The position numbers and the translations under genes were made by a program. From NCBI GenBank assembly GCA_963704755.1, contig OY969938.1, positions 1,320,001 to 1,352,000 on the forward strand: a stretch of DNA of 32,000 nt, given 5' to 3'. Numbering within the stretch: the stretch's first letter is position 1; each line of letters begins with the position of its first letter. The notes below the pieces were generated by a model, which was not told where the DNA came from, ran no database searches, and was given only the letters and a program-made list of their open reading frames with translations. This DNA is from an uncultured Chloroflexia bacterium. GTDB taxonomy: Bacteria; Chloroflexota; Anaerolineae; Anaerolineales; Anaerolineaceae. Shown here one piece after another: positions 2,995 to 31,110 of this stretch.

Positions 2995-3062
2995 AATTAG
3001 TTCATCTGCCAAAAAAAAATCCGGTTATTATCCATGACCGGCCTCTTTCCATCCCCTTTACC

Positions 3063-3096
3063 AAAATCTCCCCGGTGAATACGCCGGGGAGATTTT
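3063..3096. terminator. bidirectional intrinsic terminator (perfect 13-bp stem aaaatctccccgg / ccggggagatttt)
   Basis: Arms at 3063-3075 and 3084-3096 with an 8-nt loop. An A-tract forms the left end of the stem and a T-tract the right end. It lies about 70 nt after the stop of 2356..2994. Confidence 0.7.
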
Positions 3097-3246
3097 GGTA
3101 ACCCTGTCTCAAAATTTGTCCATTCGGTCATGTTTTCAATGCATATGGGTGCTCTTTAAGCATTGCAGAAACACCCTCTCATTTTTAAACAACCTGAGCA
3201 GTTTTGGCATTTGATAATTGCTTCTACCCGGATAGGAATATAAGTG

Positions 3247-3275
3247 TTGAAAAAATAATTGAAGTAATGTAAAAT
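3247..3275 (+). promoter_or_regulatory. sigma70-type promoter of the toxin-antitoxin pair (TTGAAA-N17-TAAAAT)
   Basis: TTGAAA at 3247-3252, an exact 17-nt spacer, and TAAAAT at 3270-3275. It lies about 50 nt upstream of the GTG start at 3326, in an AT-rich tract. Confidence 0.55.
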
Positions 3276-3325
3276 ATATTCGCCAACATACTCCACTGAA
3301 GTACAGCATCATCTCCGGAGGCATC

Positions 3326-3652
3326 GTGGAATTCATTGAAACCCCTCTGTTTTCGAAGCTGCTTTATGATTATTTGTCTGAGGATGAATTTCGTGACCTT
3401 CAAGGAGCACTGATCATCCAACCTGATTTAGGCAATATTATCCCTGGTTCAGGTGGGATTCGGAAACTACGCTGGGCAGTTAAAAATAGAGGTAAAAGAG
3501 GTGGATTACGAATAATATATTACTGGTTTGTCAGTGATGAAGAAATCTATTTCTTATACCTCTATCCCAAGAACAAAGAATCGGATCTTTCTTCTGATCA
3601 ATTAAGAAAGCTGAAGGCCTTAGTGGAATTAGCATTGGTTCAAAAGGATTAG
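3326..3652 (+). CDS. type II toxin, RelE/ParE superfamily (HigB-2-like)
   Basis: GTG start is 4 nt after GGAGG (3317-3321). The 108-aa protein shows the pattern IPGSGGIRKLRW...KRGGLRIIYYW...IYFLYLYPKNKESDL typical of the HigB-2/RelE (DUF1044-type) toxins. The toxin precedes the antitoxin, as in higBA. Confidence 0.8.
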   Translation: MEFIETPLFSKLLYDYLSEDEFRDLQGALIIQPDLGNIIPGSGGIRKLRWAVKNRGKRGGLRIIYYWFVSDEEIYFLYLYPKNKESDLSSDQLRKLKALVELALVQKD

Positions 3653-3654
3653 CC

Positions 3655-3951
3655 ATGGAAGAAAAAATGTTTGCTGAACTTGCCGAAAGTGTGAAGCAAA
3701 TGGGCGCGATCCGGCGCGGAGAATTGGCCCCTGCTCGGGTTACACATATTGAAAGTATCGATGTCAAGCGGATCCGGAAAAAACTCAACTTATCCCAAAG
3801 CGGATTTGCAAATTTAATGGGCATCAGTATCCGCACCTTGCAAAATTGGGAACAAGGCAGCCGTATCCCGGTAGGCCCGAGCCGTAGATTATTGGAGTTA
3901 GCGGACAAGGAACCGGAAGCATTGTTGAGAGCTTTTCAACAACAAAGATAG
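3655..3951 (+). CDS. XRE-family HTH antitoxin (HigA-2/NadS-like)
   Basis: ATG lies 2 nt after the toxin stop. The 98-aa protein has the HTH segment LNLSQSGFANLMGISIRTLQNWEQGSRIPVGPSRRLL, characteristic of the COG2944-type antitoxins paired with HigB-2. Confidence 0.8.
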   Translation: MEEKMFAELAESVKQMGAIRRGELAPARVTHIESIDVKRIRKKLNLSQSGFANLMGISIRTLQNWEQGSRIPVGPSRRLLELADKEPEALLRAFQQQR

Positions 3952-3976
3952 CCGAAATCTCCTCCAAAGGTAAAAT

Positions 3977-4022
3977 AAGGCCCCACAAGTACGATGGTAA
4001 TCATACATGTGGGGCCTTTTAT
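3977..4022 (+). terminator. intrinsic terminator after the antitoxin
   Basis: Perfect 11-bp stem aaggccccaca (3977-3987) / tgtggggcctt (4008-4018), running into TTTT (4017-4020). Confidence 0.7.
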
Positions 4023-4152: not shown

Positions 4153-5613
4153 TTAGGCGATCGAGGCGGCGATCTTTTCGCCGTAGCCCAACAAACTCTT
4201 CACCATTTCGGACGAACGTCCTTCGGCATATACCCGCAGGACCGGTTCCGTCCCCGATGGGCGGATCAACAGCCAGGAATCATCGGAGGTGATGTACTTG
4301 ACGCCGTCACTGGAACAGACTTCGACAATCTGTTGCCCGCCAATGGCTGACGGCGCTTCTTTACACAACCGGTCGGTCATCTTGTCCTTGGCAACCGGGT
4401 ATTTAAGGCGCATATCCTTGCGTTCATAGAACGCCGGGCCAACCTCTTCCAAAAGATCGGCGACCAACTCGTTCAGGGTGCCGCCATATTTAGCCACCAT
4501 CTCCACAATCAGCAGGCCCATGATCACTCCATCCCCTTCGGGGATATGGCCCTTGAAAGAAATCCCACCGGATTCCTCGCCGCCGATTAATACGTCTTCC
4601 TTGAGCATGCGGTCGGCAATGTGATTGAAGCCTACCGGGGTCTCATAAACTTTCATGCCGTATTTCTTTGCCAGCCGGTCGATCATCCGGGTGGTCGAAA
4701 CCGTCCGTACCACCGAACCACTCCAACCACGCTCCTTGACCAGGTAACGCAGCGCCAGCGACATAATTTTATGCGGGTCCACAAATACCCCCCGCTCATC
4801 CATCGCACCGATCCGGTCGGCATCGCCATCGGTAGCCAGCCCAAAGTGGCCCGAGCCCATCGAAATAGCCCCGGCTAAAGCGCCCAGGTAGCGCGCAATC
4901 GGCTCGGGGTGGACGCCCCCGAAACCTGGGTTCATCTCACCGCGGACTTCGAAGACTTCGCAGCCGGTGCCCTGCAAAATCGAGCGGATAACCCCGCGGC
5001 CAGAGCCGTACATCGAATCGACCACAATATACTGCGGGTTTTCGGCGATGGCATCGAAATCGATTAGCTTGCGGATGTGCTCGCTGTAAGCCGGAATGGG
5101 ATTAAAGCGGCGGATCAGGCCAGCCTCGCGGGCCTGATCGAAGTCCATCAGGTTTGGCCCGCGGGCCTGCGCTTCGTTGTCGTTGAGGTAAACCTCAACC
5201 TGCCGGCACTGTTCCGGCGAAGCTGACCCGCCGAACGCGGCCTTGAGTTTGACCCCATTGTAGCGGGGCGCGTTGTGCGAAGCAGTGATCATGATTCCAC
5301 CGATCGCATTTAAATTACGCACGGCAAACGAAATCGCGGGCGTCGGTGCGTCGGCCTGGGCCAGGTAAACCGTGTACCCATTCGCCGCCAAAACCCGGGC
5401 TGCCTCAGCAGCATAGCGATCGGAAAGGAAGCGGGTATCGAAACCAACCACCATAGTCTTCGGATCCGGGCAACAATCCTTCTCATTACCATTTAGCCAG
5501 GATTCTGACGCAACTGCATCAGCGATAGCCTGGGTCACCAGGCGCAGATTATTGAACGTGAAGGTATCAGAGATAACAGCACGCCAGCCATCGGTGCCAA
5601 AATGGATCGTCAT
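4153..5613 (-). CDS. phosphoglucomutase/phosphomannomutase (alpha-D-phosphohexomutase superfamily)
   Basis: Contains the catalytic Ser loop TASHNAPRYNGVK, the Mg loop ATDGDADR and the sugar loop GGEESGG. The ORF is 486 aa with ATG at 5613. Confidence 0.88.
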   Translation of the reverse strand: MTIHFGTDGWRAVISDTFTFNNLRLVTQAIADAVASESWLNGNEKDCCPDPKTMVVGFDTRFLSDRYAAEAARVLAANGYTVYLAQADAPTPAISFAVRNLNAIGGIMITASHNAPRYNGVKLKAAFGGSASPEQCRQVEVYLNDNEAQARGPNLMDFDQAREAGLIRRFNPIPAYSEHIRKLIDFDAIAENPQYIVVDSMYGSGRGVIRSILQGTGCEVFEVRGEMNPGFGGVHPEPIARYLGALAGAISMGSGHFGLATDGDADRIGAMDERGVFVDPHKIMSLALRYLVKERGWSGSVVRTVSTTRMIDRLAKKYGMKVYETPVGFNHIADRMLKEDVLIGGEESGGISFKGHIPEGDGVIMGLLIVEMVAKYGGTLNELVADLLEEVGPAFYERKDMRLKYPVAKDKMTDRLCKEAPSAIGGQQIVEVCSSDGVKYITSDDSWLLIRPSGTEPVLRVYAEGRSSEMVKSLLGYGEKIAASIA

Positions 5614-5670
5614 ATAGTGCTCCTGTGTAAAGGAATTTCAAAACAAACTAAAGATTTTCGACCTTGTGAA

Positions 5671-5760
5671 GAAGTTCCCGAATTTGAGGTGTTTTCCGGG
5701 GCTTCGCCCCGGAAAACACCTCAAATTCGGGGTTCTTACCCATTCAGTCGAGCAATTTCA
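5671..5760. repeat. palindromic intergenic repeat, copy A (family with 9430, 21637, 31017)
   Basis: gaagttcc + cccgaatttgaggtgttttccgggg / ccccggaaaacacctcaaattcggg (about 25-bp stem, 5677-5731) + tail ttcttacccattcagtcgagcaattt. Confidence 0.85.
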
Positions 5761-7579: not shown

Positions 7580-8611
7580 ATGTCTGTAACCAAAAAAACG
7601 GCCTTAATCGCTTTCATCCTGATCGCAGCTTTCGCAGCAAATGTTCTGGCAGGCTGCAATGGCGCTGCTTCAACTCCCACGCCCACACCAGTCCCGGTGC
7701 AGGCTTCCCCAACGGCCCTCCCGACCGCAACCACTGATCCAGGCGCTGTATGGTTCATCGCCCCTGCCCAGGCCGATCCCAGCCTGAGCCAGGCCATAGC
7801 GGCCTATTTGCAGCAAGCGGCCAGCCAGGCCGGGTTGAGCTATGCCACTTACCCCGAATTCCGCCAGAGCGAATTGCCCAAAAACCTGAAAGTTGCCGTC
7901 CTGCTGGACCCGGCCAGCGAGCCGGATCCGGCCTCACTCGCGACCAGTTTGCCGGACACCCAGTTCATCCTGATTGGCGATGGGCTGCCCCAGGCCAGTG
8001 GCAATTTGAGCGTGGTCGATACCCAATTGGACCAGCGGGTGTTCGTGGCCGGTTATATCGCCACCCTGGTAGCCGACGATTTCCGCTCGGGCGGTCTTTT
8101 TTCTGAGGGCGATCCGCTGCTGGCCAGTAAACAAGACAGTTTCATGAACGGCGGACAGTACCTGTGCGGCCGCTGTGTCCCCGTTTATCCGCCCCTGGTT
8201 ACTTTTCCTCAAATCGTCACCATCCCCGCCCAGGCAGATGCCGGTGGGATGCAAACAGCTTTTGACCAGCTCAACCAGGACACGATTCAAACCCTGTACC
8301 TGCCCGCAGAGGCCTACAACACTGACTTTTTAACCTACCTGGCCGGCCAGAACGTGGCCATGTTAGGCCTTCAAACTCCGCCGGACGGATTTAGCAACAA
8401 CTGGATCACCACCGTCCAGGTGGACGCAGTCACGGCTCTCGACCAGGTCTGGTCCGCGGTGCTCGCCGGCCAGGGCGGCCAGCAAGCTGCAGCGGTGGTC
8501 AGCCTGGCGGATACCAACGCGAATTTGCTCTCCCCCGGCCGCCAGGAAATGGTCAAAGACCTCATCAGCGAACTTGCCGGCGGTTGGGTCGTCCCCGGCA
8601 GCGTCGAATAA
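7580..8611 (+). CDS. secreted lipoprotein, fold unassigned (periplasmic-binding-protein/BMP-like possible)
   Basis: Signal peptide with lipobox LAGC, a TPTPTPVP linker, and a 343-aa ORF with clean coding appearance. Confidence 0.55.
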   Translation: MSVTKKTALIAFILIAAFAANVLAGCNGAASTPTPTPVPVQASPTALPTATTDPGAVWFIAPAQADPSLSQAIAAYLQQAASQAGLSYATYPEFRQSELPKNLKVAVLLDPASEPDPASLATSLPDTQFILIGDGLPQASGNLSVVDTQLDQRVFVAGYIATLVADDFRSGGLFSEGDPLLASKQDSFMNGGQYLCGRCVPVYPPLVTFPQIVTIPAQADAGGMQTAFDQLNQDTIQTLYLPAEAYNTDFLTYLAGQNVAMLGLQTPPDGFSNNWITTVQVDAVTALDQVWSAVLAGQGGQQAAAVVSLADTNANLLSPGRQEMVKDLISELAGGWVVPGSVE

Positions 8612-8627: not shown

Positions 8628-8685
8628 TTCAGGTTTGATTTTTGGCGGTTTCACCACCAAAAATCAAACCTGAATTATTCTTTTT
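8628..8685. terminator. terminator hairpin between convergent genes (perfect 18-bp stem)
   Basis: ttcaggtttgatttttgg (8628-8645) / ccaaaaatcaaacctgaa (8657-8674), followed by ttattcttttt. The T-tract is good only for the plus strand. Confidence 0.7.
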
Positions 8686-9313
8686 AGCTATGGCTGCCAC
8701 GAAACTCATCCATGATGACCTGTTTCGAGGCATTGATTCCTTCCCGGCGGGCTACTTTCCAAACCGTTAGAAAAAGGATCTTCGCGTCCAGCCAAAACGA
8801 CCAGTGATCTACATACCACACATCCAGGGCAAACTTTTCTTCCCAGGTGAGTGCGTTGCGGCCATTGATCTGGGCCCAACCGGTGATACCGGGCAAAACA
8901 TCGTGCCGGCGGGCCTGTTCCGGCGAATAGCGCTCCAGGTATTCCACCAACAGCGGCCGCGGGCCAACCAGGCTCATTTCGCCGCGTAAGACATTGACCA
9001 ATTCGGGCAGCTCATCCAGGCTGGTTGCCCGCAAAAAACGGCCTAACCCTGTCAGGCGCTGCGCATCCGGCAGTGGCCGGCCTTTGCGATCGACAGTCAG
9101 GCGCATCGTTCGAAATTTAAACAGAGTAAATATGGTTCCCCCCAGGCCGGGACGCTTTTGGGCAAAAATAATCGGGCGGCCTTCAGTTAAATATACCATC
9201 CCGGCCACAACCAACATGGCCGGGATGGCCACGACAAGGCTGGGGATACAAACGGCCAGGTCCAACGCGCGCTTGATGATGGGCACTTTCCGGTGGAAAT
9301 CCTGTTTATTCAC
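8684..9313 (-). CDS. polyprenyl-phosphate sugar-1-phosphate transferase (small monotopic PGT, PglC/WbaP C-terminal type)
   Basis: GTG start at 9313. One N-terminal hydrophobic helix, then the bacterial sugar transferase core including KFRTM and DELPELVNVLRGEMSLVGPRP. Confidence 0.85.
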   Translation of the reverse strand: MNKQDFHRKVPIIKRALDLAVCIPSLVVAIPAMLVVAGMVYLTEGRPIIFAQKRPGLGGTIFTLFKFRTMRLTVDRKGRPLPDAQRLTGLGRFLRATSLDELPELVNVLRGEMSLVGPRPLLVEYLERYSPEQARRHDVLPGITGWAQINGRNALTWEEKFALDVWYVDHWSFWLDAKILFLTVWKVARREGINASKQVIMDEFRGSHS

Positions 9314-9429
9314 ACAGGCATTTTACCAAATTAAGTCTGAGCCTGGTTTATAATCTTACAGGGTCCCTAAAAAATTCAGATGCCCCTATGGTTCATGCAA
9401 AGTAACTACTCATGCTCCTGTTTAAAAAT

Positions 9430-9473
9430 CCCCGAATTTGAGGTGTTCTTCCCAGTTAGGCTGAGCAGTTACC
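9430..9473. repeat. palindromic repeat family, half copy B (left arm + tail only)
   Basis: ccccgaatttgaggtgtt is joined directly to the tail cttcccagttaggctgagcagttac. The right arm is missing. Confidence 0.7.
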
Positions 9474-9546
9474 ATGCAAAAATATTTGCACCGCTCCGGG
9501 TACATTACCGGATGGATCAATTTCAAGCGAGGAAGGTTACCCTTTT

Positions 9547-10980: not shown

Positions 10981-11280
10981 TAAGTTTAGCTGCACCTGCC
11001 GGGGTTTGTAGGGTGCTGTTGCGGGCTGGTGATTTACCAACTGGTCAAATCACCAGGCGTGACTCGCCTCCCGGCATGCCCGCAACGCACCATGAGTTTG
11101 TTCGGTAAATATTTCAGGTTACATGCAGGGCCTGGAATGTGCTGTGTTTTTAGATGCCAGCATAATAATCGAACCCTAACCCAACCTATTTGCTAACCGA
11201 AATATGCAAATAGCCGGCGCTTTTGGTGCGTTACCAACGCACCCTACATCTGGCTTACAAAGCTCCCCTGGCCGGGAGAG
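10981..11280. repeat. degenerate remnants of the 223-bp unit plus GTAGGGTGC...GCACC hairpin modules
   Basis: agtttagctgcacctgcc and gttgcgggctggtgatttaccaac resemble the start and end of the downstream unit. There is a long imperfect hairpin gtagggtgctgttgcgggc (11008-11026) / gcccgcaacgcacc (about 11078-11091). There is also a short hairpin ggtgcgttaccaacgcaccctac near 11225-11247. Confidence 0.4.
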
Positions 11281-11945
11281 CAGCTAAAGCTGCACCTACA
11301 GATACACAAAGACCCACCTGCGTGGGTCTCTCTTTTGGCAGAGCCTGATCCCCTCGCCGGATTTTTGCCTGGCAAGCTGGAGAAGTGTCCTCACCCCCTT
11401 CTTGCTAAAGCGGTAGCGCATCCCGCATTTTGTAGAAAGAGACTCACGCAGGTGGGTCTTCGTGTTTTTGTTGCGGTGATTTCAATCTCCAACGCATAAA
11501 CCGGCAGCTAAAGCTGCACCTACAGATACACAAAGACCCACCTGCGTGGGTCTCTCTTTTGGCTGGGCCTGATCCCCTCGCCGGATTTTTGCCTGGCAAG
11601 CTGGAGAAGTGCCCTCACCCTACCTGTAAAATAGGTAGCACATCCCACATTTTGTTAAAGGAGACCCACGCAGGTGGGTCTTCGTGTTTTTGTTGCGGTG
11701 ATTTCAATCGCCAACGTATAAACCGGCAGCTAAAGCTGCACCTACTGATACACAAAGACCCACCTGCGTGGGTCTCTCTTTTGGCAAAGCCTAATCCCAT
11801 AGCCGGGTTTTTGCCTGGCAAGCTGGAGAAGTGCCCTCACCCCCTTCTTGCTAAAGCGGTAGCGCATCCCGCATTTTGTAGAAAGAGACCCACGCAGGTG
11901 GGTCTTTGTGTTTTTGTTGCGGTGATTTCAATCGCCAACGCGCCA
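11281..11945. repeat. tandem array, 3 units of 224/222/~219 bp, each carrying two mirrored terminator-like hairpins
   Basis: Units start at 11281, 11505 and 11727 (cagctaaagctgcacctac...). Each contains gacccac-ctgc-gtgggtc + tctcttttgg, and about 130 nt later its reverse complement gacccac-gcag-gtgggtc + ttcgtgtttttgttg. Confidence 0.9.
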
Positions 11946-20807: not shown

Positions 20808-21560
20808 TCATTCGGTGCTCAACCTGGCCGTCGCGCCGCCGTCCACCACCAACGCCTGGCCGGTCATGAAGGAAGATTGGTCGTGGTCCGCCAGGAAATA
20901 GATGACCTTGGCGATCTCTTCCGAAGTACCCACCCGCCCGTTGACCGTTTTCCGGGCCAGGTTTTCCAGCCGTTCGGGAATGGTGCCGGTACCGCCCAGG
21001 TGGGCCCGCAGCATGGGCGTATCGACCGCACCCGGCAGCACGGCATTCACACGGATATTATCCGGCGCAAACTCGATCGCCATGGCGCGGGTCAAAGCCA
21101 GGATGCCGCCTTTGCTGGCCGCATAAGCGGCGATATTGGCCGATGTGGCAATGGCGTGCACGGACGACGTGTTGACTATCGCACCCCCACCCCCGGCGGC
21201 CAACAGCGGATGAGCCAGTTTGGCGCCCAGGAAGACCGAGCGCAGGTTGGAGGCCATGACTGCGTCCCACTCCTCGACGCTGGTCTCCAGGATCGGTTTG
21301 ACGATCTGGTAGGCGGCGTTGTTGATCAACGCGTCGAGGGTATCGGTATAGTCGCGCGCTTTTTGGTAAATCGCATCGAAATTCTTTACATCCGCCAGGT
21401 CAGCCTGAATGAACAGGCCTGGCTGCGGGAAGGGTTCACCGAAATCGTTGCGGTCCACGCCGATAACCCGCCAGCCTTTTTCAACGAAATAGACCACGGT
21501 GGCGCGGCCAATCCCCCCCGCCGCCCCGGTAATCAACATCACACGGTTTTCTGGATTCAT
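20808..21560 (-). CDS. SDR-family oxidoreductase (classical short-chain dehydrogenase)
   Basis: ITGAAGGIGRA (TGxxxGxG), NNAA, and S...YAASK catalytic residues. ATG 21560 (MNPENRVMLITG) is preferred over the track start 21620, which would add 20 non-conserved residues. Confidence 0.85.
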   Translation of the reverse strand: MNPENRVMLITGAAGGIGRATVVYFVEKGWRVIGVDRNDFGEPFPQPGLFIQADLADVKNFDAIYQKARDYTDTLDALINNAAYQIVKPILETSVEEWDAVMASNLRSVFLGAKLAHPLLAAGGGGAIVNTSSVHAIATSANIAAYAASKGGILALTRAMAIEFAPDNIRVNAVLPGAVDTPMLRAHLGGTGTIPERLENLARKTVNGRVGTSEEIAKVIYFLADHDQSSFMTGQALVVDGGATARLSTE

Positions 21561-21636
21561 TGTAAGTAACCAACCTGTTCTTCGAAGGATGCCCGGCTTG
21601 CCAACCATTTGCTCTAGCAACTACTCAAGCCAATGA

Positions 21637-21729
21637 ATGAAGTTCCTAAATTTGAGGTGTTTGCGGGGGCGATGCACCCGCAAACACCTCAAATTTAGGG
21701 CTTTTCCCATTGGATTGGGCAGTTACTTA
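21637..21729. repeat. palindromic intergenic repeat, copy C
   Basis: gaagttcc + cctaaatttgaggtgtttgcggg (21645-21667) / cccgcaaacacctcaaatttagg (21677-21699) + tail gcttttcccattggattgggcagttactt. Confidence 0.85.
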
Positions 21730-21773
21730 TTTTAAACCATCTCAGGGGATTTTCGGGCGAGGAATTTTTATTT

Positions 21774-21930
21774 CACCGCAGAGGCGCAGAGAGCGCGGAG
21801 AAGAAAAAAGATAACCACGGAGCACGGAGAGCACGGAGAAAAGAAAGAAAAGGGGAGAAGAGAAATTACTATTTACAAGAATGATAGCCTAAAGTGGATC
21901 GGCCCGGTCTCCAGACCGAGGCCGCTCTTC
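21774..21930. repeat. short relative of the 331-bp unit (two triple-heptamer modules + ggcccggtctccagaccgaggccg box)
   Basis: caccgcagaggcgcagagagcgcggagaag, aaccacggagcacggagagcacggag, agagaaattact...gtggatcggcccggtctccagaccgaggccgctctt match modules of 24278..25300 in permuted order. Confidence 0.75.
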
Positions 21931-22018
21931 GGCGTCGGACTACCAGCCCATAGACTGATAGTCCGGTGCTATTTACCCACCACTGCACCGGCCGAACCAT
22001 GCGTGGGCAGCCAGAACT

Positions 22019-24169: not shown

Positions 24170-24277
24170 TGATTTGATCCCAAGGGTGTGAGTAGGTACA
24201 GCACGCCTTATTGTAACGTGAGTTTGGAAAATTTCGTAGGCGCAGGAAAATCACCAAAGTGTGGGGAGAAGAGATTA

Positions 24278-25300
24278 ACCACGGAGGCACGGAGGACACG
24301 GAGAGGAAAAAAGATTTTAACCACAGAGGACACTGAGTTCACTGAGAAAAAAAAGAAGAGAAATTACTGTTTAAAATGACGATGGCATCAGGTGGATCGG
24401 CCCGGTCTCCAGACCGAGGCCGTTCTTATGCACCGATCAAGAGATTGCACCGCAGAGGCGCTGAGAGCGCGGAGAAGATTTTTTAGAAAGAACGCCGGCG
24501 TAGGGTGCGTTTTAGGGCTGAATTCTCTGACATCGGCGGACCACCAGGCCATTCGCCCACATCGGCGTGCCCGGAACGCACCATTACGGCGCAGATCTTA
24601 TAAATAAAACCACGGAGGCACGGAGGACACGGAGAGGAAAAAAGATTTTAACCACAGAGGACACTGAGTTCACTGAAAAAAGAAAGAAGAGAAATTACTG
24701 TTTAAAATGACGATGGCATCAGGTGGATCGGCCCGGTCTCCAGACCGAGGCCGCTCTTATACGCCGGCCAAGAGATTACACCGCAGAGGCGCTGAGAGCG
24801 CGGAGAAGATTTTTTAGAAAGAACGCCGGCGTAGGGTGCGTTTTAGGGCTGAATTCTCTGACATCGGCGGACCACCAGGCCATTCGCCCACATCGGCGTG
24901 CCCGGAACGCACCATTACGGCGCAGATCTTATAAATAAAACCACGGAGGCACGGAGGACACGGAGAGGAAAAAAGATTTTAACCACAGAGGACACTGAGT
25001 TCACTGAGAAAAGAAAGAAGAGAAATTACTGTTTAAAATGACGATGGCATCAGGTGGATCGGCCCGGTCTCCAGACCGAGGCCGTTCTTATGCACCGATC
25101 AAGAGATTGCACCGCAGAGGCGCTGAGAGCGCGGAGAAGATTTTTTAGAAAGAACGCCGGCGTAGGGTGCGTTTGAGGGCTGAATTCTCTGACATCGGCG
25201 GACCACCAGGCCATTCGCCCACATCGGCGTGCCCGGAACGCACCATTGCGGCGCAGATCTTATAAATAAAACCACGGAGGCACGGATGTCACGGAGAAAA
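24278..25300. repeat. tandem array, 3 full units of exactly 331 bp plus a partial fourth
   Basis: The unit start accacggaggcacgga recurs at 24278, 24609, 24940 and 25271. The duplicated 71-aa track ORFs at 24392 and 24723 are 331 nt apart. Confidence 0.92.
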
Positions 25301-25440
25301 ACGAAGAAAGAAATTAGGAAAGAGAATTTGTTAAACGCAGATCCGCCCGGCCCCTCGCAACCCTCGGCCGAGGCCGCTCTTCTGCACCAAGCCAAGAACC
25401 CGGCTTAGAAAGCCGGGCTACCCTCGCGCTCTTCTGCGCC

Positions 25441-25472
25441 AAACGAAAAGCCCGGCTTAGAAAGCCGGGCTA
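25441..25472 (-). terminator. intrinsic terminator of the 2-hydroxyacid dehydrogenase operon end
   Basis: The minus strand reads agcccggctt-tct-aagccgggct followed by tttcgttt. A second copy of the hairpin at 25398-25419 lacks a T-tract. Confidence 0.6.
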
Positions 25473-25475
25473 CAA

Positions 25476-25556
25476 CTAATCGCTAACAGCTAATTGCTAA
25501 TCGCTAACAGCTAATCGCTAAAAGCCAACCGCTAATCGCTACCCGCTATCCGCTCC
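25476..25556. repeat. microsatellite-like ctaatcgcta(a/c)cag repeats overlapping the 3' end of the CDS 25532..26503
   Basis: ctaatcgcta occurs 4 times, plus the variant ctaattgcta. On the minus strand it reads tagcgattag..., giving TAG in multiple frames. Confidence 0.75.
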
Positions 25557-30086: not shown

Positions 30087-30962
30087 TCAGTCGGTCACCC
30101 GGCGTAACTTTTTCAGCGAAGATAACTCGCTGTCATAGACCTTTTTGACGCCGTCGCCCAGGGCCTGTTCGGTCACGCGGATGTATTTGACCAGGCGTTC
30201 GAAGCCGCCCGGTTCGACTGAGGCAGCCTGGTCTGAGCCCCACATGGCCCGGTCGAGGGTAATATGGCGTTCTACCAGGCAGGCGCCTAACCCGACCGCC
30301 ACCACACTGGGGATCAGGCCCACTTCGTGGCCTGAATAGCCGATCGGGCAGTCGTATTCGCCCTTGAGCGTCTGTACCATGCGCAGGTTCAGGTCTTCCG
30401 GCGGGCAGGGATAGGCGCTGGTGGTGTGGCAAATCACCAGCCGGCCAGTGTCCAGGTATTGGATCGCCTGCTTGATCTGGTCCTGGGTGGACATGCCGGT
30501 GGAACAAATGACCGTCCGGCCGGTGCTGGTGAGCTTTTTCAGCAGGTCGTGATCGGTCAAGGCCGCCGAGGGCACCTTATAGGCTACCGGGTCGAAAGCC
30601 TCCATGAAATCCACCGAGGGTTCATCCCAGACCGAAGCGAACCAGGTGACGCCGATCTTTTTGGCGTAAGCATCGATCTCGCGGTACTGCTTCTCATCAA
30701 ATTCCACTTTATAGCGGTAATCCAGATAGGTGATGTATCCCCAGGGGGTTTCACGCATCACGTTGCGCTGGTCAACCGGCGTACACAGCTCCGGCGTGCG
30801 TTTCTGGAATTTGACCGCATCGATACCGGTTTGTTTGGCCACGTCCATCAACCTTTTGGCAATTTCCACATCGCCGTTGTGGTTGATTCCGATCTCCGCC
30901 ACAATGTAGGTCGGTTGACCTTCGCCGATCAACCGGTCCCCAATTTTTACTGTCTTCGCCAT
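30087..30962 (-). CDS. NeuB-family sialic-acid-type (nonulosonate) synthase, short form without C-terminal SAF domain
   Basis: YIVAEIGINHNGDVEIAKRLMDVAKQTGIDAVKFQKR and the HxV/GYSGHE region. It is 291 aa, versus about 346-350 aa for canonical bacterial NeuB. Confidence 0.85.
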   Translation of the reverse strand: MAKTVKIGDRLIGEGQPTYIVAEIGINHNGDVEIAKRLMDVAKQTGIDAVKFQKRTPELCTPVDQRNVMRETPWGYITYLDYRYKVEFDEKQYREIDAYAKKIGVTWFASVWDEPSVDFMEAFDPVAYKVPSAALTDHDLLKKLTSTGRTVICSTGMSTQDQIKQAIQYLDTGRLVICHTTSAYPCPPEDLNLRMVQTLKGEYDCPIGYSGHEVGLIPSVVAVGLGACLVERHITLDRAMWGSDQAASVEPGGFERLVKYIRVTEQALGDGVKKVYDSELSSLKKLRRVTD

Positions 30963-31016
30963 AGGTTCTCCATTTGGTTTATGCAGGAATAATGTAACCG
31001 TTCAGCCTTACCAACT

Positions 31017-31110
31017 AAAACCCCGAATTTGAGATGTTTACACGGACGAAGCCCGCACAAACATCTCAAATTCGAAAATTCTTTACCAGCCTGTCCGGTT
31101 ACGAAATAAT
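31017..31110. repeat. palindromic intergenic repeat, copy D
   Basis: ccccgaatttgagatgttt ... aaacatctcaaattcg (31021-31075) + tail aaaattctttaccagcctgtccggttacg. Confidence 0.8.

Follow-up and report, generated by a model that had tools for sequence, protein, structure and literature searches.

Palindromic repeats in a glycan gene cluster of an Anaerolineaceae bacterium as probable copies of a miniature transposable element with IS66-like ends and a hairpin core

The palindromic repeats that lie between the genes of a 32,000-nucleotide stretch of an uncultured Chloroflexia bacterium (Anaerolineaceae; assembly GCA_963704755.1, contig OY969938.1, positions 1,320,001 to 1,352,000 of the forward strand; hereafter, the window) very probably belong to a family of non-autonomous, non-coding MITEs (miniature inverted-repeat transposable elements) of ~111 bp that is abundant in Anaerolineaceae. 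We class the element as a MITE, and not as a repetitive extragenic palindromic (REP) element, because it is bounded by terminal inverted repeats (TIRs) and flanked by 8-bp target-site duplications (TSDs). Its center is a long hairpin whose arms differ from copy to copy by mirrored substitutions, and we hold, with modest confidence, that these changes arise at the level of DNA by template switching from one arm to the other. An initial annotation of the window, made from its sequence, had read the repeats as an RNA structure or a symmetric operator that could mark a glycan-biosynthesis regulon, and had named a REP/MITE family with hairpin-templated repair as the null explanation; the results below retain the MITE and the signs of DNA-level homogenisation from that null explanation and discard the REP.

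The repeat family and its target sites

Two sets of loci were collected to characterize the family. For set 1, one genome per species was scanned for ATTTGAGRTGTT-N(6-36)-AACAYCTCAAAT, which produced at least 83 loci totalling 602 kb, nearly all of them from metagenome-assembled genomes (MAGs) of Anaerolineaceae/Chloroflexota, with more than 55 in MAG DAIQPZ01 alone among the matches listed. For set 2, metagenomes were scanned with a pattern spanning one half of the element, GTAACTGCTCAG-N16-22-GAATTTGAGGTG, which produced 96 contig stretches totalling 477 kb. A profile hidden Markov model (HMM) of the element detected 130 copies in set 1, and 150 unique copies were present in set 2, for more than 280 copies in ~1.1 Mb overall. 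The alignment of 76 copies with 50 nt of flanking sequence gave a consensus that is a near-palindrome of ~111 bp, GTAACTGCTCAGCCATGAGAAGAAAGTTGCCGAATTTGAGGTGTTTGCGGGTGCTTCGCACCCGCAAACACCTCAAATTCGGGTCTTTTTCACATGAGCCTGAGCAGTTAC, beyond whose GTAAC...GTTAC borders conservation falls off sharply. The ends, GTAACTGCTCAG...CTGAGCAGTTAC, form TIRs of 12-14 bp (GTAACTGCTCAGCC), with both G and A found at position 7 within the family (GTAACTGCTCAG and GTAACTACTCAG), and the center is a hairpin with a 25-bp stem and a 3-nt loop. The hairpin recognized by the initial annotation is this core, and the "left flank" and "tail" that it had described around the hairpin are the outer arms of the near-palindrome. 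No open reading frame (ORF) lies within the 111-bp consensus, the overlaps with ORFs being limited to the over-extended 5' ends of adjacent ones.

The flanks of the copies carry the trace of insertion. At offset 0, the two 8-nt flanks were identical in 22 of the 74 full copies of set 1 and matched at seven of eight positions in 18 more, compared with a mean of 2.6 matches and perfect identity in 0.4% of cases when the flank pairings were shuffled; in set 2, the duplication was perfect in 51 of 102 full copies and matched at 7/8 in 18. The duplicated sequences vary from copy to copy and are 74% A+T, compared with 53% for intergenic and 45% for coding DNA, and this preference for A+T-rich 8-mers as targets helps explain why the copies lie between genes.

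Derivatives that have lost the core recur among the loci (L014, 695-764; L044, from 3837; L039, 4438-4505, with a perfect TSD; and L005, L087, and L177), which is the expected instability of a long palindrome. In L087 (~1560-1633) and L173 (1655-1730), the same MITE termini surround a different core hairpin (CTAAATGCCTGGCCACTTGCCAGGCATTTAG), and L177 (10800-10856) contains a 57-bp form made up of the MITE termini with no core; scaffold and core hairpin, these loci suggest, are separable modules. Matches to the hairpin pattern were also found at two loci, L011 and L062, on the 607-kb contig CAVPIV010000008.1, which belongs to a MAG whose label is Thermoleophilia (Actinomycetota). At L062 the MITE is complete and its TSD perfect, and L011 scored poorly against the consensus and lies outside the alignment. 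Either the family has spread horizontally beyond the Chloroflexota or the bin is mislabelled.

Transposase lineage and genomic context

The ends of the element resemble those of the IS66 family of insertion sequences (ISs), whose inverted repeats are 20-30 bp in length, start with GTAAGCG, and are accompanied by 8-bp direct repeats (PMC11946415), the GTAA start typical of the family's ends being shared by the MITE. ISDge4 of Deinococcus geothermalis, a member of the ISBst12 group of this family, encodes a single 449-aa transposase, has the TIRs GTGACTACTCAGCA and GTAACTGCTCAGCA, and produces an 8-bp direct repeat (PMC12898284). The consensus MITE end GTAACTGCTCAGCC is identical to the ISDge4 TIR at 13 of 14 positions and has the same G/A alternative at position 7, and on the strength of this match and of the shared duplication length the MITE ends are assigned, as far as sequence likeness goes, to the ISBst12 group. 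ISDge4 is autonomous, whereas the MITE has no ORF in its 111 bp, encloses a perfect hairpin, and resides in Chloroflexota. Judging from its termini and the length of its duplication, the MITE would owe its mobility to a DDE transposase acting in trans, from the ISBst12 group of the IS66 family, and would insert into A+T-rich 8-mers, here mostly between genes, with the duplication of 8 bp. The scan of the loci for TIRs yielded core-deleted or variant MITEs only. Of eight candidate ORFs, most of them between TIR-like ends, six are ordinary genes (two for HpcH aldolases and one each for cytidylate-kinase-like, metallo-beta-lactamase fold, PhyH, and enolase-like proteins) and two had no Pfam match, and the candidates examined were mostly ordinary genes situated between two MITE copies. 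A BLAST search of the consensus against the PLSDB plasmids returned chance matches only.

Several well-known bacterial repeats have a comparable build. The Correia elements (NEMIS) of Neisseria, the RUP elements of Streptococcus pneumoniae, and the ERIC elements of enterobacteria are likewise non-coding, near-palindromic, intergenic, high-copy sequences of ~100-150 bp with terminal inverted repeats, and they likewise form long hairpins when co-transcribed with their neighbours. Correia and RUP elements differ from the present family in producing a TA duplication and in being related to other IS families, and ERIC elements in having no known transposase; the 8-bp TSD, the IS66-type ends, and a core that homogenises itself, with a 3-nt loop that flips, are peculiar to the MITE family described here.

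The statement of the initial annotation that the copies always lie upstream of minus-strand sugar-metabolism genes is true of the window, where all four copies lie 31-88 nt upstream of glycan-related genes and where Pfam supports the annotations proposed for the neighbours (PGM/PMM, Bac_transf, SDR, and NeuB). It is also uninformative, as the 13-32 kb region consists almost entirely of minus-strand glycan genes, and an association with sugar genes is expected from the position of the window alone. Among the collected loci, the copies occupied 56 tandem, 26 divergent, and 9 convergent gaps, compared with intergenic lengths of 39.2, 19.4, and 10.8 kb for the three types, and are thus spread roughly in proportion to the available intergenic DNA. 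Almost all copies could be oriented by means of the asymmetry of their outer arms, and between co-directional genes the same and the opposite orientations were found 26 and 27 times, respectively, in set 1 and 20 and 27 times in set 2 (46:54 in total, n = 100). Copies are faced by the 5' ends of 117 genes, which represent 172 Pfam families, none with more than three members, show no enrichment in glycan functions, and include genes for sigma-70, SRP54, ABC transporters, glutamine synthetase, and amidase. Copies also trail stop codons closely, at a median distance of 23 nt. The initial annotation had itself proposed that orientation and gene class be tabulated and had named a lack of bias in them as grounds for refutation, and no bias was found in either, which refutes the regulon, operator, and oriented-RNA readings.

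A cis-regulatory signal of a glycan-biosynthesis regulon, whether in the form of a symmetric operator bound by a dimeric regulator or of an RNA leader or attenuator with a fixed orientation, draws on the location of the four window copies and is extremely improbable in light of the hundreds of occurrences beside unrelated genes (SRP54, sigma factors, ABC transporters, glutamine synthetase), the unbiased orientation, the distribution of gap types with intergenic length, the TSDs, and the lack of an Rfam match above threshold. Across the whole window, Rfam 15 gave no match at the gathering threshold, and a permissive search gave generic long-hairpin matches, mostly to miRNA precursors, of 13-30 bits where the gathering thresholds are 56-270 bits, so that a known RNA family was ruled out. 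An oriented RNA element was ruled out by the lack of orientation bias and of a G·U excess on the sense strand, and an intrinsic (Rho-independent) terminator by the absence of a U-tract and of a terminator-like call at each of the four window copies; on both strands, what comes after the core stem is AAACACCTC. Only slightly less improbable is a REP/REPIN-type element whose single-stranded hairpin is recognised by a REP-associated tyrosine transposase (RAYT), that is, an IS200/IS605-like Y1 transposase. The repeats are palindromic, extragenic, and high in copy number, with a stem that is maintained, and RAYT systems select for hairpin integrity; Y1 transposition yields no target-site duplications, however, and the present copies have them at 8 bp. 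REPs share with the MITE their extragenic palindromes, their hundreds of copies, and compensatory stem variation between copies, but are 20-40 nt in length, are tagged GTAG/CGTC (PMC3733652), and are tied to a Y1 transposase, whereas the MITE measures 111 bp, has GTAAC ends and no GTAG/CGTC head, and possesses DDE-type TIRs that match an IS66-family element. No Y1 transposase is present in the window.

Mirrored substitutions in the core stem

The mirrored differences between copies to which the initial annotation drew attention exceed chance. Among 85 copies, 45 of the 48 pairs of the long hairpin had changed on both sides, compared with 27.1±2.5 in column shuffles (0 of 500 shuffles), and the same copies contained 273 mirrored cells, compared with 89 in the shuffles and 81-129 in slid-register controls. 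In set 1, 57% of core changes and 14% of outer-arm changes were mirrored, and in set 2 the shares were 61% and 6%, respectively. In the core the mirrored changes were divided between 84 transition and 82 transversion cells (17 and 24 distinct types), and the one-sided changes, with 69 transition and 54 transversion cells, had about the same spectrum.

The core remains paired as the remainder of the element decays. In bystander copies, meaning those that were not picked by the search pattern, divergence from the consensus was 0.20 per site in the inner stem and 0.235 in the outer arms, and pairing was 0.87 and 0.65, respectively; the inner stem thus diverges about as much as the outer arms and yet stays paired, which is not simply stronger conservation. 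Outer-arm pairing was tightly bound to outer-arm decay (Spearman rho -0.85 and -0.91) and core pairing was uncorrelated with it (-0.03 and +0.11), and in copies with decayed TSDs core pairing was still 92-94%. As core pairing does not depend on how far the outer arms have decayed, something maintains it once the element has inserted. When copies were oriented by their outer arms alone, the 3-nt loop read GAA in 27 and TTC in 25 copies of set 1 and GAA in 19 and TTC in 28 copies of set 2, and both members of the loop pairs CAG/CTG and CAA/TTG were also present; the loop has thus undergone repeated inversion with respect to the remaining parts of the element.

These patterns are probably, by a modest measure of confidence, the product of arm-to-arm template switching in DNA. 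The perfect core palindrome would fold back during replication and template switching would copy one arm from the other, upon which a mutation in one arm would be either erased or mirrored. The loop context met most often on one strand, GCGAAGC, makes a notably stable mini-hairpin in DNA, which would favour the fold-back. A DNA-level process is favoured over selection on RNA by the mirrored transversions, the lack of a significant wobble excess, the flipped loops, and the recurrent deletion of the core, and the transversions in particular count against a G·U route because they cannot pass through G·U intermediates. Template switching at quasipalindromes, in which the nascent strand serves as its own template and the repeat is made more perfect, is an established process (PMC7202029); to it we add, on our own account, that the loop may occasionally be inverted when copying runs through it. 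The outcome predicted by the quasipalindrome template-switch model (the Ripley model; Lovett laboratory, PMC7202029), an imperfect inverted repeat perfected by the copying of one arm from the other, matches the mirrored changes of the MITE, transversions included, and its inverted loops. Experimental demonstrations of the model come from single reporter loci of E. coli, yeast, and phage T4, whereas our case is built on the pattern among ~190 natural copies.

A number of points weigh against this account of the element and its core. No transposase was found by Pfam among the large ORFs of the window, and none bounded by TIRs was found by the TIR scan of the 83 MAG and 96 metagenome loci (1.08 Mb), so the link to IS66/ISBst12 rests on TIR identity and TSD length relative to a Deinococcus element; MAG assemblies tend to lose IS copies. 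The search pattern of set 1 requires both mid-stem arms and inflates conservation at positions 34-45 and 67-78, a bias for which the bystander copies and the half-constrained second set served as controls, and genes in the loci were called by a simple longest-ORF heuristic, which limits the analysis of context. As the element is palindromic, the orientation test is weak against a role exercised in either orientation, and the lack of orientation bias leaves room for such a role of an RNA or DNA structure. The counts of G·T to A·C mismatches on the sense strand, 24:14 and 14:13 in the core (38:27 in total), lean slightly toward G·T and have little power there, with 65 informative cells; the corresponding counts in the outer arms are 110:101 and 103:97 (213:198 in total). 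Lastly, selection acting on each copy could keep the stem paired.

That last point leads to a domesticated MITE whose core hairpin is kept paired by host selection and works in either orientation, either as an RNA hairpin in polycistronic transcripts, where it would block 3' exonucleases, be cut by RNase III, or act as an attenuator, or as a DNA structure that would be bound by a nucleoid protein. The stem is indeed still paired in old copies with decayed outer arms and TSDs, the hairpins are extremely stable, the copies sit a median of 23 nt behind stop codons, the core mismatches have the slight lean noted above, and REP, ERIC, and Correia elements have documented side effects of this kind. 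We nonetheless consider host selection unlikely, given that the wobble excess is not significant and there is no depletion, relative to G·T, of non-wobble mismatches, that mirrored transversions are as frequent as transitions, that the loop flips freely and core deletions have recurred in copies that otherwise persist, and that the window copies lack a U-tract or terminator-like call and the gap types follow gap length. Somewhat less likely again is that the mirrored changes were inherited from master copies with different perfect stems, with no maintenance after insertion. Clear stem subfamilies do exist (GCGGGTGC, GCGCTTACC, GTGGGTAC, and ATGGGGGC), each common to many copies, and 26 of the 41 distinct mirrored core types were seen in at least two copies; the other 15 are singletons, however, core pairing holds steady while decay proceeds in the outer arms and TSDs, several stem subfamilies include loops of both orientations (GAA/TTC, CAG/CTG, CAA/TTG), and inheritance leaves the origin of the mirrored changes in the master copies unexplained.

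We also entertain, as an unlikely reading, that the core is not a passive passenger and is instead a self-maintaining, exchangeable module on an IS66-type MITE scaffold. The modular gain and loss of a hairpin cargo would fit the scaffolds with a different core (L087 and L173) or with none (L177 and the second window copy). One possibility is that a dedicated or unusually efficient hairpin-directed copying keeps the module perfect in place, its loop behaving as a minute invertible switch; alternatively, the host may put it to use and so retain it, for instance as an RNA or DNA structural element that functions behind stop codons in either orientation.

Insertions in the window and their implications

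The four related copies reported in the initial annotation were recovered by direct reading of the sequence, a repeat finder, and the profile HMM, the last of which detected exactly four copies in the window and none besides. The repeat finder placed 5671-5740, 21639-21708, and 31016-31085 in one family, and the core motif AATTTGAGGTGTTT, allowing up to three mismatches, occurred 11 times, compared with 2.3 expected (0 of 100 shuffles reached 11). The three full copies form very stable hairpins, folding as RNA at -52 to -64 kcal/mol (z -8.6 to -11.4). The four copies are independent insertions of different ages, as the differing flank matches (8/8, 7/8, 5/8, and 3/8) indicate, in the gaps of a long minus-strand glycan cluster that occupies nearly all of the 13-32 kb region (GT2s, PMT_2, CTP_transf_3, Capsule_synth, and HAD genes, identified by Pfam). 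The window shares synteny and ~70% nucleotide identity with MAG DAIQPZ01.

Copy 1 (5650..5760, plus orientation; nhmmer 72 bits, profile positions 9-109) is old, with degenerate termini and flanking 8-mers that match at 3/8 by direct reading. Its hairpin core at 5677-5731 has 26-nt arms (5677-5702/5706-5731) that are 100% complementary according to the repeat finder, with an RNA fold of -62.5 kcal/mol (z -10.9). It lies 13 nt past the stop of a DUF389/SH3 gene and 36 nt ahead of the ATG of the PGM/PMM gene (pgm; 4153-5613, minus strand), whose AGGAG ribosome-binding site is intact. Copy 2 (9402..9472, minus orientation; nhmmer 25 bits, profile positions 67-111) is a 71-bp derivative. The initial annotation had listed 9430-9473 as a half copy, and a repeat it is, though not a half: both termini (GTAACTACTCAT...CTGAGCAGTTAC) are kept, the TSD CATGCAAA is identical on the left (9394-9401) and right (9473-9480) at all eight positions, and what is missing is the loop and one arm of the core, ~41 bp in all, with the deletion junction at a GTT microhomology. 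It is located in the divergent gap between the sugar transferase gene (Bac_transf; 8684-9313, minus strand) and trpS.

Copy 3 (21617..21726, plus orientation; nhmmer 83 bits, profile positions 2-110), given as 21637-21729 in the initial annotation, is a full element of 110 bp with a hairpin core at 21645-21699 (26-nt arms, 21645-21670/21674-21699, 96% complementary), an RNA fold of -64.4 kcal/mol (z -11.4), and flanking 8-mers, ttgctcta and ttatttta, that match at 5/8. The longest ORF of the adjacent SDR gene (20808-21620, minus strand) begins at a TTG at 21620, inside the copy, and its Pfam domain starts at residue 27; the true start is likely the ATG at 21560, 56 nt downstream of the copy, and the TTG an artefact of the over-extended ORF. 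In the MAG loci, 17 longest-ORF calls share over 30 nt with a MITE copy, in most cases at the 5' end of the ORF, and probably reflect the same artefact. Copy 4 (30994..31102, minus, that is, in the opposite orientation; nhmmer 58 bits, profile positions 3-110) has a hairpin core at ~31021-31078 with an RNA fold of -52 kcal/mol (z -8.6) and a TSD matching at 7/8 (left, 30986..30993, GGAATAAT; right, 31103-31110, GAAATAAT), and lies 29 nt past the stop of a HAD-like gene and 31 nt upstream of the ATG of the NeuB gene (neuB; 30087-30962, minus strand). A promoter-like site at 31082-31110 on the plus strand, the one such call, combines a -35-like TTTACC in the right end of copy 4 with a 17-nt spacer and an AATAAT in the flanking TSD and faces the HAD-like gene in antisense; the consensus end, in which TTCACA stands 17 nt from the edge of the element, could be a source of hybrid promoters elsewhere. 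As an explanation of the family, an outward hybrid promoter (a -35 from the MITE end with a -10 from the A+T-rich flank) was set aside, since the copies show no bias in orientation toward downstream genes.

The window contains other repeats. Three tandem units of 331 bp, 97-99% identical, occupy 24277-25238 between the genes for a 687-aa membrane protein and a 2-hydroxyacid dehydrogenase, and a partial fourth unit of this type at 21770-21938 adjoins copy 3. The units contain short repeat runs of the CACGGAG/CACTGAG type and a small hairpin (GGCCCGGTCTCCAGACCGAGGCC), and a comparison with the 83 MAG loci gave no significant match and only two short ones at E~3e-4. Two direct repeats of 47 nt at 25375-25555, each with the hairpin CCCGGCTT-AGAA-AGCCGGG, are followed by 7-nt GCTAATC/GCTAACA-like units that run into the dehydrogenase gene (ATG 26503, stop side 25532). 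Between dtd and infC, three tandem units of ~222 bp (11280-11941) contain inverted repeats of 28-34 nt each (ACACAAAGACCCACCTGCGTGGGTCTCT) and are unrelated to the MITE. A 34-nt inverted repeat at 27247-27280/27421-27454 (CCACGGATGGACACAGATGGACACAGATTTATTT, 88% complementary) brackets 140 nt of A+T-rich DNA in the gap between a cytidylyltransferase and a GT2 gene and may represent either another small mobile element or a palindrome with a regulatory role. The gap separating the convergent genes 7580-8611 (+) and 8684-9313 (-) harbours a hairpin at 8628-8674 with 22-bp arms and a loop of 3 nt (TTCAGGTTTGATTTTTGGCGGT/ACCACCAAAAATCAAACCTGAA), a candidate for a bidirectional terminator. An ORF for a RelE-like toxin (3326-3652, plus strand; PF06296, E 1.9e-8) is situated in a stretch of low G+C content (3000-4000) between a 212-aa ORF with no Pfam match (2356-2994) and pgm. 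No tRNA was found in the window.

If the gaps are transcribed, hairpins of the predicted -52 to -64 kcal/mol will form in the mRNA; an effect on the processing or polarity of neighbouring genes is possible by analogy with Correia, ERIC, and REP elements and would be, if anything, a by-product. Our literature search found no paper mentioning both MITEs and Anaerolineae, or both ISBst12 and MITEs, and the family would extend non-autonomous elements of the IS66/ISBst12 type to the Chloroflexota. For annotation, the copies should be masked as MITEs, as they give rise to false upstream start codons (the SDR TTG at 21620) and can be mistaken for regulatory motifs; they also break MAG assemblies, many copies being found at contig ends. 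With ~190 near-full-length natural copies aligned, the family gives a view of palindrome homogenisation at a population scale that is seldom available; mirrored transversions, flipped loops, and pairing that is independent of age agree with laboratory template-switch models, which have mostly been tested at single reporter loci.

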